Assembly: GCA_964347045.1 (NCBI GenBank)
Contig: CAYFXC010000006.1
Location: 100,425 to 142,664 of the forward strand
Direction of reading: 5' to 3'
DNA: 42,240 bases
Origin: an uncultured archaeon
GTDB lineage: Archaea; Asgardarchaeota; Hermodarchaeia; Hermodarchaeales; Hermodarchaeaceae
Shown piece by piece: positions 26,636 to 30,472 of this stretch. Position 1 is the first letter of the stretch. Each line of letters starts with the position of its first letter. Position numbers and translations under genes: made by a program. The notes under the pieces were generated by a model, which saw nothing but the letters and a program-made list of their open reading frames with translations, was not told where the DNA came from and did no database searches.

Positions 26636-26967
26636 CCCGAAAGTTGTTGGTTTTTCCTGGGACTCTTTGCGGGTAACTTACTGGACAGTAGGCAACTAGT
26701 TTGCTTGAATTTTTTGACAATATAGGAAATACAGCCAACAATAAATCCTTAAAAAGAACCTAGTTTGATAATCGATTCCTTTTTGAATATCGACCTATCA
26801 CGACCTGTAACTTCACGATACACCCTAATAGGAATCCCAATAACAGCAAGAAATGAAGTGCTAACATAAGGATGTGCCTTTTTAGAAATAAACCCAGTTT
26901 TCGGAAGCGCCAAGCTTGCTGTCGATATAGCTTCGATACACGACATATTTGAATAACCTGTAGTCGA

Positions 26968-27364
26968 GAATACAGGATCTTTGAAGTCACCCCTGCGAAG
27001 ATTATTACTTCAGTCATTAAGTTACATGAAAGCCCACCGGTCATCGTTGCGAGCAAAGAACTCACTCCCGAGTCGATTGTGCAAAAATGGGTGGAACAAG
27101 ATGAGAGCCGAATCCACCCCTTGCTTATGAGGTAGCAAACCTCAAACAAGTAGTGAAAATTCAGAAATCACGTGGCGTTATTTTTACCATTGATGATATC
27201 CTTGGGAGCGAAAAAGAAGAAAAAAACAAATTTTCACCCCACCCACTCCTACAGCTAATCATATTATTGAGTATATTCAACGGTTTGGAGACTTTGATGG
27301 CTTCTTTACTCCCTCAAATATCAACGAACTAATGAAATCAACCATACATCTCAGTGAAAGCTGA
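26968..27364 (+). pseudogene. Frameshifted remnant of a VOC / 4-hydroxyphenylpyruvate-dioxygenase-like gene
   Basis: Three frames join to give '..SIVQKWVEQDESRIH/LAYEVANLKQVV..QKSRGVIF..DILG/KQIFT...HIIEYIQRFGDFDGFF..NINELMKS', the HPPD-like C-terminal pattern. Frameshifts near 27120 and in the A-run near 27220; 5' part decayed. Confidence 0.75.
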
Positions 27365-27404: not shown

Positions 27405-27435
27405 AAAAAAAGGGGTGACGCAAGGGACGGCACCC
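27405..27435 (-). terminator. Hairpin + U7 terminator
   Basis: Minus strand GGGTG-ccgtcccttgcgt-CACCC followed by cTTTTTTT. Confidence 0.65.
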
Positions 27436-27680
27436 AATAGCGGGATGGGGCGTCCAGAACGAGGACATAAAGGAGGAGAGGGGGAGAGGGGAATGAAAGA
27501 CACAGGGAAGGATACCCCATCCTGTCGCCAAGTTACCGTTTTGATTTTACCTCGTTAGGTATCTTACGAATGGAAACTGAGCTCCAGGACAAGATGGAAA
27601 GGATTGACGGAGAGAGAGCTTCTCTAGATTAAACGTATTGATTTTGTGCTTTATTCCACCTCGGGGAACTCCCGTTATCC
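27405..27680 (-). ncRNA. Candidate UCC-rich structured ncRNA 'A'
   Basis: Consensus promoter on the minus strand at 27703-27718, hairpin + U7 at 27405-27435, long stem 27441-27450/27515-27524, 14 TCC triplets in 27425-27611 (minus strand), no credible ORF. Confidence 0.6.
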
Positions 27681-27702
27681 AATGAAGTATTAGTGGTACG
27701 GA

Positions 27703-27718
27703 ATTTAAAACGCTTTCC
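27703..27718 (-). promoter_or_regulatory. BRE/TATA promoter
   Basis: Minus strand GGAAAGCGTTTTAAAT, same pattern as promoters of clear genes in this window (AGAAGTTTTAAGG before 35351, GAAGCACTTTTAAC before gdhA). Confidence 0.7.
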
Positions 27719-28007
27719 TTTTACTGGTGGAGTTTTTTCCTGAAATCGCAAGGGATTCGGAAAAAATGCACCAATCTTTTCGTATTCACTATGAATTGTT
27801 TAGTCTTTTATGATATTATAGTAGTAGAAAAACAGCAAGCTAAAAAGGGGATACAATAACGCCATAGAAAATTATGACAAGTAAATGGTTCTGCTTCAAT
27901 TTACTCTCACTCGATATGCATTCCGTTCATCTTGTCCATTAACAATTATGTATCTTTGACAAATAATCAGTCTCGAAATATATTCGTCTGAACTAGCAAG
28001 GATTTTT

Positions 28008-28763
28008 ATGGAGCATTCAATAGAAGGTATAGCGGAGGGTTTCTCTGGAATGCTCTATATTTATGAAGCGCCCATCCATTTTGGAGTGGTAATTCTACTG
28101 TGCATCATTTTTCTGTTGTTCGCGTTGATCGGGATTATTGGAGCCCTAAGAGTTGAAAAGCCGTCAACATCGGGATTTGCTGGCTTCTTGACAGTCTTCT
28201 TTGGGTTCCTGACTTTTATGGTCATTGCTGCATCAATCTTCTTGCTTCCATCTTCAGCAACTGCAAGTGACCTGCTTCCCTATTATCTTGGTGCATACTC
28301 TTTTGTTGGGCTCCATGCATTTTGCCTAATATTCTATCTCTTCAATCTACCATGGTTTAAGAAGCGAATTTGGGCAGTATTTCTCCCCATTTTCGGAACA
28401 CTTTCATGGTTGACGGTCTTATGGTTTCTAGCGACACCTGCGACGGTAGGGACCATCTCAGATGGATTTGCCACCTACATCATCATGCCCTTTGCCGTAC
28501 TCTTGTATAGTGGCATTTTAGCAGTATTATATTTGTTGTTAGTTCCACTCTTGGTTCTCTATCGCGTAGCCCAGACACGAGAAGGTGCAGCAAAAATGTG
28601 GACCTGGATAGGAATGCTTGGACTTCTTCTGTGGTTCATCGCTATCTTGCTCATGGCTTTTGTTCAATTCACCGCACCGTTTATGCTCTATGCCTTCATC
28701 CTCGGAGCTCTAGCGTGGATAATCATATTCCTAGCTTGGCTCATGATTGAATTCAGATCCTAA
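28008..28763 (+). CDS. Hypothetical ~7-TM membrane protein with no soluble domain
   Basis: About seven hydrophobic helices with short loops; followed by a terminator. Confidence 0.8.
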   Translation: MEHSIEGIAEGFSGMLYIYEAPIHFGVVILLCIIFLLFALIGIIGALRVEKPSTSGFAGFLTVFFGFLTFMVIAASIFLLPSSATASDLLPYYLGAYSFVGLHAFCLIFYLFNLPWFKKRIWAVFLPIFGTLSWLTVLWFLATPATVGTISDGFATYIIMPFAVLLYSGILAVLYLLLVPLLVLYRVAQTREGAAKMWTWIGMLGLLLWFIAILLMAFVQFTAPFMLYAFILGALAWIIIFLAWLMIEFRS

Positions 28764-28787
28764 CAATTGATTCTTCGATATTACTTC

Positions 28788-28832
28788 AACCCGTCTGCTA
28801 ATCTACCAGCAAACGGGTTTCTCTTCTTTTTT
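28788..28832 (+). terminator. Hairpin + pyrimidine/U tract
   Basis: AACCCGT-c-TGCT...AGCA-a-ACGGGTT followed by TCTCTTCTTTTTT. Confidence 0.7.
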
Positions 28833-28844
28833 CGATTTAGGAAA

Positions 28845-29100
28845 TAATGTGGAGGTGCCCGACAAATGGACGCGGGCACGTCCCTGTGTAGTCATCCCCC
28901 TACACCCCCGCTCGAAGCAGGTAACCCAGACGAGAGATGCTAGTCGGTTCCGGTTGCCTTAAGAAAAATCTTCTGAGGTTCGGACAACGGGAGGAAGGGA
29001 TTTGGGAGGGACAGGACGCGGGAGGGCTCCCCGGGGGGACAAGTTTTTCAAGGCACCGGATTATCCGATTCGCGTCTTGAGAGCTTCCTGGAGTCTGTGT
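28845..29100 (-). ncRNA. Candidate UCC-rich structured ncRNA 'B' (strand less certain)
   Basis: GC-rich intergenic island; hairpins 28855-28879 and 28886-28905, stem 29012-29020/29071-29079; 9 TCC triplets in 28982-29039 (minus strand); upstream region resembles the promoter of unit A. Confidence 0.5.
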
Positions 29101-29130
29101 TACCAAATAATACTGGGTGAGTTTGAAAAC

Positions 29131-29157
29131 GCGTAGTTCCCAACAGGGGAACTACGC
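29131..29157. promoter_or_regulatory. Perfect 11-bp inverted repeat (operator or hairpin)
   Basis: GCGTAGTTCCC-AACAG-GGGAACTACGC, adjoining a TATA-like element at 29121-29130. Confidence 0.6.
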
Positions 29158-29353
29158 AAATGCGCAGTTTCGGAGCGATTATCGTTCTAAACCAGATACA
29201 ATTTGTGGGTTAATTCACGCGATTGCGGGGTTTAGAGTGGTCTTAAAAATCTTGCACTAATTTGAGTTGTGTAATTGGGAGAGTTGTGTTTTTCAAAGAA
29301 AGGACAAAGCATATCAGCATCTGAATCGGGTGAATAATTAGTATTGTACGACA

Positions 29354-30472
29354 GTGGGTGGATATGTGACATTTAAACCGTCGGTACTTGAAGACCGTGG
29401 AGCATGGTTGCTTATCAAACGGTTACTTGATGGTACCATCGATGACCTACATCCTGTGCTGGATTCCACTACACCCTATGGCTTTCGGTATCCGGAGGCA
29501 GAAAAGGTTCTGGAAGCGGACCCGAAGAATACCGTAGATCGTTTGGAAGGATTACACCGTGCGGGTATTCTTGATGGTAAATTATCAGAGTCGATATTCA
29601 CCTGTGCAGAATGTGAATCTCCAGACCTGCATCCCCAATATCAGTGTTTAAATTGTGCAAGTAATCGATTAGTTCGTCATCCCATGATTGAACACTTTTC
29701 ATGTGGCTTCATTGCTCCACGAAGTGAATATGAAAATAAGAAGGGGTTACGATGTCCTTCATGTGGGAAACCCCTTGAAGGAGAAAAACAGGATTACAAG
29801 TCAGAATTAGCCTTCCAATGTTTAAACTGTAACAATGTAGGGGCAACACCTCGATTGGTGTTTCGATGTTTTCAATGTCAAAAATCTGGCGAAGCATCAA
29901 CAATGGAAGAACGCCCAATCTATGTATATCGATTGAATATGAAGCATCGGGGTGAAATCATTCATTATCTAGGATTTCATCCCACGCCAGAGGCTCAAAA
30001 GCCCTCGCGAAAAAAGCACCGAATCGATTTAGATGACATGGACCGGCGAATCCTTAATCTCTTACAACGTGATGCCCGATTATCTTTTCGGAATGTTGCC
30101 AGACGATTAAAGGTGAGCGATGCTACAATCCGTAGTCGAGTAGCCCGACTGGAACAAAATAATGTCATAAAAGCATTCACTGCCCTAATAAACCCAGAAC
30201 AGGTTGGTATGGAAGTGGTTAGTCTTATCCAACTTGAAGTAAATACCCAAGTTATGACAAAAGTCAAAACAGACCTGCAGATAATTGATGAGGTGAAACT
30301 AGTTATGGAAACAGGAGACCGCCCCAATATTATTCTGTTGACAGCATTTCCAACACGAGAAGCATTGAATGCATTTTTAGATAACCATATCCGAGGGAAA
30401 CCAGGAATCCAATTACTCTCAGTGACCTTGGCTTTAGGTCTACCGAAATACAATTGGATGATTCAATTATAA
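29354..30472 (+). CDS. TackOD1-like multi-zinc-ribbon domain fused to an Lrp/AsnC regulator
   Basis: N-terminal 'LEGL..AGIL', CxxC x5 plus 'IEHFSCG' and 'QDY', the pattern of the TackOD1 output domain; C-terminal 'LDDMDRRILNLLQRDARLSF..VARRL.VS..TIRSRV.RLE' HTH + RAM domain. Confidence 0.85.
   Translation: MGGYVTFKPSVLEDRGAWLLIKRLLDGTIDDLHPVLDSTTPYGFRYPEAEKVLEADPKNTVDRLEGLHRAGILDGKLSESIFTCAECESPDLHPQYQCLNCASNRLVRHPMIEHFSCGFIAPRSEYENKKGLRCPSCGKPLEGEKQDYKSELAFQCLNCNNVGATPRLVFRCFQCQKSGEASTMEERPIYVYRLNMKHRGEIIHYLGFHPTPEAQKPSRKKHRIDLDDMDRRILNLLQRDARLSFRNVARRLKVSDATIRSRVARLEQNNVIKAFTALINPEQVGMEVVSLIQLEVNTQVMTKVKTDLQIIDEVKLVMETGDRPNIILLTAFPTREALNAFLDNHIRGKPGIQLLSVTLALGLPKYNWMIQL

Follow-up and report, generated by a model that had tools for sequence, protein, structure and literature searches.

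Do two pyrimidine-rich stretches beside a membrane protein gene of an Asgard archaeon encode small RNAs (sRNAs), and if so, what would these RNAs do? The window analysed here is the whole stretch of 42,240 nucleotides (C6:100425-142664) taken from a metagenome-assembled genome of the Hermodarchaeia (2.58 Mb, 89% complete, 42.9% G+C), and the two stretches, units A and B, had been singled out in a first-pass annotation as related, UCC-rich non-coding transcription units. All coordinates are window positions, and A and B are discussed as minus-strand units unless stated otherwise. Judged from comparative sequence data, A and B are real, separately transcribed, folded RNA genes of the minus strand, and not proteins, leaders or GGA-repeat RNAs. 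On the same evidence, the family of A is previously uncatalogued, is multi-copy and holds open an almost unchanging C/U-rich loop; A itself is a probable member, long and divergent, while B is a separate single-copy RNA outside that family. The evidence is good for the genes, for their strand and folds, for the family and for its confinement to Hermodarchaeia.

Asgard archaea are the closest known prokaryotic relatives of eukaryotes, and to our knowledge almost nothing is known of their regulatory RNAs. A lineage-wide multi-copy family with covariation-backed folds is now defined, together with a partner RNA that appears to be tied to an unusual regulator combining TackOD1 and Lrp/AsnC domains (TackOD1-Lrp). 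The genes, models and operator sites make riboregulation at ribosome-binding sites (RBSs), as against a new kind of ribonucleoprotein (RNP), testable in Asgard archaea.

Both stretches are present as first described, as G+C-rich islands (0.55-0.61 versus 0.42 for the genome) with a pyrimidine-rich minus strand (C+U 61% in A and 54% in B; TCC 15 times in A, 13 in B) and a GC hairpin at the 3′ end of each. BLAST comparisons covered 40 relatives, 18 of them other Hermodarchaeia (in two genera) and 22 from other families; neither A nor B was found in the latter 22, and within the former the gap that flanks the units is not conserved, unlike A and B themselves. Neither A nor B has a match in Rfam, be it at gathering or relaxed thresholds, or in a tRNA scan. 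The genes for signal recognition particle (SRP) RNA and RNase P RNA were located with Rfam models elsewhere, on contig C1, and the candidate identities of A or B as either RNA are rejected on that ground. Single-sequence folding z-scores are unremarkable (-2.4 to +0.9); the informative signal comes from comparative data only.

Three covariance models were used: R1 from the 3′ domain of A, R2 from the further family units C, D, E and G introduced below, and R3 from B. With A and B modelled separately, searches of this and related genomes returned homologues with covariation, and the picture of two promoter-to-terminator units that keep no open reading frame (ORF) stands. The features of A are these.

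27405-27680, minus strand: unit A, a predicted structured small RNA of ~275 nt, from 5′ GGAUAACGGG to a U7 run
27703-27718, minus strand: B recognition element (BRE)/TATA box of A, GGAAAGCG TTTTAAAT, its position and sequence are shared by both genera and by the metagenome homologues
27732-27766, no strand assigned: inverted repeat upstream of the A promoter, TTTTTTCC..N..GGAAAAAA, also at L040-L043; a candidate regulator site
27644-27680, minus strand: 5′ purine-rich arm, predicted to be able to pair with and mask the core
27515-27529, minus strand: 5′ strand of closing helix, 3-nt bulge and helix P3, GGCG-ACA-GGAUGGGG
27458-27512, minus strand: pyrimidine-rich invariant core of 55 nt, 100% identical in 17/17 homologues
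27452-27466, minus strand: P4 hairpin, GUCC..GGAC, paired in 16/17 sequences
27440-27450, minus strand: 3′ strand of closing helix and P3, CCCCAUCC-CGC, partner 27515-27529
27412-27435, minus strand: terminator hairpin, then U7 (27411-27405); the stem covaries and the loop varies

BLAST finds A in 13 of the 18 other Hermodarchaeia genomes, with 75-81% identity over its full length in eight genomes of the same genus; A is also present on five metagenome contigs. In the alignment, conserved sequence begins 23 nt past the TATA box and ends with the terminal hairpin and U7 run, which a terminator scan also detects. The promoter of A directly follows the terminal hairpin of B in genus 2, so the two are separate tandem genes there. 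When 185,579 species genomes were scanned for exact words of the core of A, which also served as the query for metagenome scans, the only matches were records of Hermodarchaeota, Candidatus (Ca.) Hermodarchaeum yapensis and Promethearchaeota archaeon. A stretch of 55 nt of RNA that stays unchanged across genera is unusual and marks a strong constraint.

Pairing in the 3′ domain was assessed in an alignment of 17 sequences, five of them metagenome contigs. The closing helix GCG/CGC and P3 (GGAUGGGG/CCCCAUCC), the latter enclosing the core, are paired in 100% of cells, with four compensatory pairs, eight G-U cells and no A-C cell. Since the covarying helices contain many G-U cells and zero A-C cells when read on the minus strand, the strand is fixed, which overturns the earlier caveat that G-U pairs favour the plus strand. 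The ORFs of 60-68 aa, which had been named as possible real products, differ in frame, start and length between orthologues and have 1-2-nt indels within them.

The first 37 nt of A are complementary to nearly the whole core (predicted duplex -28 kcal/mol, an energy reached by 0-4 of 200 shuffles in genus 1). The 5′ sequences of genus 2 and of a metagenome homologue (L046) differ, yet they pair with the unchanged core, more weakly (4-16 of 200 shuffles). As the arm duplex and P3 would cross, we read them as alternative states, with the loop either masked or open.

Two deviant copies of A were seen. In L046 (metagenome contig Ga0153916_10315681, 300-470; 56% G+C) a compact homologue of ~165 nt has the identical 55-nt core, different stems, a compact 5′ part and different flanks, and is convergent with a ferredoxin gene, just as A is in the window. 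On contig C88 of genome G018 (L025:1246-1330) the 3′ third of A stands alone, comprising CUCCUCCUUUUUGUCC, the P4 hairpin, the 3′ strand of P3 and the terminator hairpin; it begins directly past an ORF's stop codon, with the TackOD1-Lrp orthologue of G018 lying ~7 kb away. This copy may be a leftover, or else a terminator module that now serves as a 3′ untranslated region (UTR).

Is A alone in its genome? With R1 there is one further match in this genome (unit C, C5:39456-39577; 30 bits, E 3e-3 genome-wide), and orthologues of unit C are the sole other match in six genomes. R1 detects A in Hermodarchaeia only, and not in the 133 other Asgard genomes scanned. BLAST with unit C returns 1-4 matches per genome, and the resulting family alignment has 35 distinct members that share one plan: paired 5′ and 3′ ends, UGGCG/CGCCA, an A-rich 3-nt bulge, P3 and a loop. 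The loop is C/U-rich and 45-70 nt long; it holds the invariant UAGAAA(A)CCAUUCCCUCUCC, mostly continuing into CCUCCAAUUGUGUCC, and the nearly invariant motif CAUUCCC(C)UCUCC...UGUCC, after which a U-run is present. Of the 20 pairs in the family fold, 13 have changes in both partners (86 cells); the share of paired cells is 90%, as against 35-47% with slid partners.

R2 finds four members in this genome (C5:39455-39598, C5:64866-65004, C8:104616-104754 and C12:15786-15924) and 1-5 copies per genome in 18/18 other Hermodarchaeia. The C-type motif was scanned within the GTDB Asgard sample, where R2 gave only two borderline matches, nothing convincing, in 132 other Asgard genomes. Every member comes with a TATA box of its own, 25-30 nt upstream, and with a T-run on the downstream side. 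The outer helices vary between paralogues with covariation, and each paralogue sits at a conserved orthologous place. The loci are scattered among unrelated metabolic genes, so the RNAs presumably act in trans. Unit E (C8:104616-104754 of genome G000; L114:1617-1755) ends 56 nt upstream of a same-strand gene for a B12-binding radical SAM protein and could additionally be a leader there.

The scaffold of A, GGCG-ACA-GGAUGGGG...CCCCAUCC-CGC, matches this plan, and R1 aligns A column for column with unit C. A also carries the motif CAUUCCC(C)UCUCC...UGUCC and the optional GUCC..GGAC hairpin. In the other direction R2 scores A weakly (11 bits, E 0.03 in a 2.1-kb search), and a hidden Markov model of the loop only cannot tell A or B from shuffled sequence. 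In five orthologues of unit C (L068, L074, L076, L078, L080) an insertion of ~17 nt adds a GUCC..GGAC hairpin and a second GUCC; this hairpin is the one that is constant in A.

Unit B was annotated in the same way, with the following features.

28842-29104, minus strand: unit B, a predicted structured small RNA of ~260 nt; 5′ end uncertain, 29104 or about 29085
29049-29076, minus strand: central stem, 5′ strand, helices 3-6, partner 28936-28963; compensatory changes and G-U cells
28975-29017, minus strand: pyrimidine tract with CCUCC motifs and the invariant CCGUUGUCCGAACCUC
28936-28963, minus strand: central stem, 3′ strand, pairs with 29049-29076
28880-28911, minus strand: 3′ purine-rich segment, ..GUAGGGGGAUGA..ACACAGGGAC; conserved
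28849-28879, minus strand: terminal hairpin with CACCUCC(AC) tail; the stem covaries

R3 finds B as a single copy in 13/19 Hermodarchaeia and in 0/132 other Asgard genomes; BLAST finds it in 12/18 other Hermodarchaeia genomes, with 75-84% identity in seven of the same genus. It folds into a long stem, with interruptions, that encloses the pyrimidine tract, and into two hairpins; 13 of 39 pairs are compensatory, many cells are G-U, and 92% of cells are paired against 39-58%. The 16-nt word CCGUUGUCCGAACCUC is invariant in 13/13 sequences. CCUCC occurs four to seven times in 12 of the 13 orthologues and once in that of L011, about 20-fold above the genome average; the repeat unit CCCUCCCAAAU varies in copy number, and a CACCUCC tail is present in 9/10 genus-1 orthologues. 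In Ca. Hermodarchaeum yapensis (G006; L018, 2259-2558) the 3′ third of B is rearranged, its purine-rich segment and usual terminal hairpin being swapped for unrelated sequence.

A relationship between A and B, as first proposed, receives none of the expected signals from BLAST, MAFFT, nhmmer or two covariance models. B has zero matches with R1, R2 or nhmmer to the family, its stem layout differs, and the only resemblance is the short word UCCUCCC-GUUGUCC. A C/U-rich small RNA family is indeed present in this archaeon, but it does not consist of A plus B: A groups weakly, in both directions, with the four dispersed loci C, D, E and G, and B is on its own. The similar loop described for the two terminal hairpins is free to vary among orthologues. 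The shared upstream word gcgtttt(a/c)aa is part of the conserved BRE/TATA in A, while in B it is restricted to this genome, its GCG belonging to a conserved CTACGC half-site.

What might these RNAs do? Our leading idea is that they pair with ribosome-binding sites, with a protein-binding scaffold as a strong rival. A rod made of the paired ends, the GGCG/CGCC helix, the 3-nt A-rich bulge and P3 would hold the loop open, and the C/U-rich loop would be the working part of a family RNA, most likely base-pairing with purine-rich translation-initiation regions and so masking ribosome binding. A may be a self-inhibited or switchable version, as its extra 5′ purine-rich arm is able to cover its own loop. 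B would probably be activated by TackOD1-Lrp, its neighbour, by way of the CTACGC half-sites next to a weak TATA box. The targets, the masking and the link to the regulator are what we infer from sequence; antisense masking of initiation regions, as a step of its own, is offered tentatively, and the whole reading, in which A and B are independently transcribed, trans-acting structured sRNAs and the family of A masks initiation regions, we hold as plausible at slightly less than even chances.

The genome does use Shine-Dalgarno (SD) sequences: the core GGAGGUGA occurs in 31.5% of start regions versus 9.5% of controls, and GGAGG and GGUGA peak at -14 to -8 from the start. An SD plus start codon, GGAGAGGGA-AUG, has the family word CAU-UCCCUCUCC as its complement, which supports a mechanism directed at initiation regions. 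The CACCUCC tail of B matches exactly the 7-nt core of the Hermodarchaeia 16S 3′ end GAUCACCUCCU, the anti-Shine-Dalgarno (anti-SD) core of 16S rRNA, and the anti-SD idea would fit B best. In duplex energies the family loops bind start regions ~1 kcal/mol better than coding controls.

Several points weigh against this reading. Reversed loops bind start regions equally well, so the start-region pairing test is uninformative. CCUCC is entirely missing from members D and G, and the fixed stretch, 20 nt across paralogues and 55 nt in A, much exceeds what a pairing seed needs; these two facts weaken the anti-SD mechanism for the family, and an invariant stretch so far beyond seed length favours a specific protein or RNA partner. 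No long complementary target was found in the 89%-complete genome, bar the antisense strands of the genes themselves. The scores that link A to the family are weak (30 bits for unit C with R1, 11 bits for A with R2), and the 5′ arm and P3 of A are mutually exclusive in full, which makes any fold of A provisional. Finally, the transcript ends of A and B, and expression itself, are read from sequence signals. Complementarity of the loops to Hermodarchaeia 16S and 23S rRNA was likewise no better than that of shuffled loops.

Known sRNAs offer functional analogies. Two intergenic RNAs of Methanosarcina mazei, sRNA41 and sRNA154, are described in a review as masking ribosome-binding sites (PMC5867862, which cites Buddeweg et al. 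2017). Going by that account, they resemble the Hermodarchaeia RNAs in being archaeal, intergenic and separately transcribed, with exposed anti-RBS sequences proposed to block initiation, including within polycistronic mRNAs; unlike them, the Hermodarchaeia RNAs are multi-copy and have a rod scaffold and an invariant loop of 20-55 nt. The likeness is a functional analogy, and kinship in sequence or structure is not expected. The cuckoo RNAs of Alphaproteobacteria (CcsR1-4/RSs0680, alpha-r14, NfeR1) are a multi-copy sRNA family (PMC4615179, PMC8034643) with two to four adjacent hairpins and the 9-nt motif CCUCCUCCC in each loop (PMC4615179). Here too stems vary by compensatory change around a fixed, C/U-rich, anti-SD-like motif, and exactly the word CCUCCUCCC occurs in 6/13 orthologues of B. 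However, the Hermodarchaeia family has one large loop closed by paired ends, a much longer fixed sequence and an archaeal host. We reject B as a cuckoo, CcsR or alpha-r14 RNA: the motif occurs once, within one large loop, there are no tandem hairpin loops, and Rfam gives no match. The staphylococcal RNAs RsaE and RNAIII, invoked earlier for their exposed UCCC/CCUCC motifs, share these motifs but belong to unrelated bacterial families.

The regulatory side of the proposal concerns the surroundings of B. The locus reads RidA (-), ferredoxin (+), a poorly conserved gap of ~770 bp, unit A (-), a seven-transmembrane (7TM) protein gene (+), unit B (-), the TackOD1-Lrp regulator (+) and a HEAT-repeat protein (+). 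The relevant features are as follows.

29131-29168, no strand assigned: three GCGTAG/CTACGC half-sites just upstream of the weak TATA of B; candidate TackOD1-Lrp operator
29354-30472, plus strand: TackOD1 plus Lrp/AsnC regulator, divergent from B; Pfam TackOD1 (1e-32) and AsnC-type helix-turn-helix
28008-28763, plus strand: 7TM membrane protein gene between A and B; no Pfam match

The half-sites are conserved with a variable spacer and abut a weak, non-canonical TATA region, and TackOD1-Lrp would be the protein that binds them. Upstream, A differs from B in having another conserved inverted repeat and a strong BRE/TATA. TackOD1-Lrp adjoins B in genus 1, and two B-positive genomes, G017 and G018, have full-length orthologues on other contigs. 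The B-negative genomes G012, G011 and G002 have no full-length orthologue, only partial domain matches, and the contiguous locus of G012 has the A and 7TM genes with both B and the regulator absent. This co-occurrence, in few and related genomes, suggests that TackOD1-Lrp controls B.

The 7TM gene is probably a neighbour outside the RNA system. The units had been seen as organised around it, an arrangement that genus 2 lacks, since B and A stand in tandem there and no 7TM gene lies between them. Genus 1 has one to three copies of the gene: in the window and in L004, L006, L012, L014, L016 and L017 they are diverged and in tandem, with 36-73% identity, and their number differs between genomes.

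How well do other explanations account for the same data? The strongest makes the family, with A in it, the RNA component of a dedicated RNP, or a protein sponge, the loop being the dock for a protein that prefers C-rich RNA (KH-type, Sm-like or other); it would act like Y, vault or CsrB-type RNAs without belonging to those families. We consider this somewhat unlikely overall, although much of the evidence suits it: 20-55 loop nucleotides are invariant across paralogues, two genera and the relative with 56% G+C while every stem varies, the scaffold (GGCG, the A-rich bulge of 3 nt, a helix) shows conservation of the kind seen in a recognition element, there is a U-run after the UGUCC motif, D and G do without CCUCC, and no specific RNA target emerged among start regions, rRNA or long matches. 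Yet no candidate protein was found, the loci have no conserved neighbouring gene in common, Ro60/TROVE (PF05731) was not found in this 89%-complete genome, and the scaffold is unlike a kink-turn, with Watson-Crick helices on both sides of the bulge. A kink-turn reading of the bulge was rejected on the latter ground.

Y RNAs, the Ro60-associated RNAs built as a rod with a pyrimidine loop, offer a comparison for such a particle. They too have 5′ and 3′ ends that form a stem, a big pyrimidine-rich internal loop, a U-rich 3′ end and several paralogues per genome; the Hermodarchaeia RNAs differ in having no Y_RNA match in Rfam and no recognised Ro-binding helix. Identity as Y RNAs was rejected, as PF05731 was not found in the genome, at its 89% completeness, and Rfam was negative. 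A more elaborate version, which we rate as rather improbable, makes the family the RNA subunit of a Hermodarchaeia-specific RNP in which the masking arm of A and the Lrp-controlled B would set the availability of the loop. If true, this would be a new kind of archaeal RNP, Y- or vault-like in build but unrelated.

Next in rank, and quite improbable, is that A and B act on each other, the 3′ purine segment of B pairing with the core of A so that the Lrp-controlled B sets the amount of free loop. Predicted duplexes between the core and B reach -39 to -51 kcal/mol in nine genomes, where shuffled B gives -23 to -28; the G-to-A variants of G003 and G005 still have a U to pair with, and A and B are always linked where both are assembled. 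But the segment of B ranks only about 10th of 3060 seeded windows genome-wide, other purine-rich DNA scoring alike, which leaves such a pair possible and unproven; moreover, in the consensus fold of B the segment is taken up by pairing with the 5′ end of the same RNA, the 5′ arm of A covers the same core, and G012 has A and no B.

Very improbable, in our estimate, are cis-acting elements, that is, leaders, 3′ UTRs or antisense regulators of the 7TM or TackOD1-Lrp genes. A and B do adjoin these genes in genus 1, with B divergent from the Lrp gene; against this, both genes are read from the other strand, A and B come with promoter and terminator signals of their own, and in genus 2 the B-A tandem lacks the 7TM gene and the Lrp gene is found on a separate contig; the other family loci are in unrelated contexts.

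The least probable explanations, CsrB-like GGA-repeat RNAs of the plus strand, proteins of 60-68 aa or copies of a miniature mobile element, draw on GGA-rich plus-strand runs, on ORFs of 42-68 aa and on multiple copies with inverted ends, but fail respectively on the G-U cells and missing A-C cells that fix the minus strand, on the indels in unconserved ORFs, and on outer helices that differ and covary between paralogues, unlike fixed terminal repeats, each paralogue keeping its place across genomes and its own TATA box, with zero matches to the core of A or of B in viral contigs. CsrB acts through GGA motifs on RNA. The repeated short motifs of A and B recall CsrB-type sponges, which are unrelated bacterial families, and a CsrB/RsmZ-type sponge was rejected, as the G-U cells show the transcribed strand to be C/U-rich and not GGA.

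Two minor observations concern other sequences. In the gap downstream of A, a 129-aa minus-strand ORF (26760-27149) has a weak tblastx match to G007 (41% over 76 aa) and may be a small, fast-evolving gene. The 16S rRNA gene of Ca. Hermodarchaeum yapensis (L088; G006 contig C71, 619-4212) is ~3.6 kb long, with an extra stretch that breaks up its 3′ end region, a layout that fits large insertions or introns in Hermodarchaeia rRNA genes.

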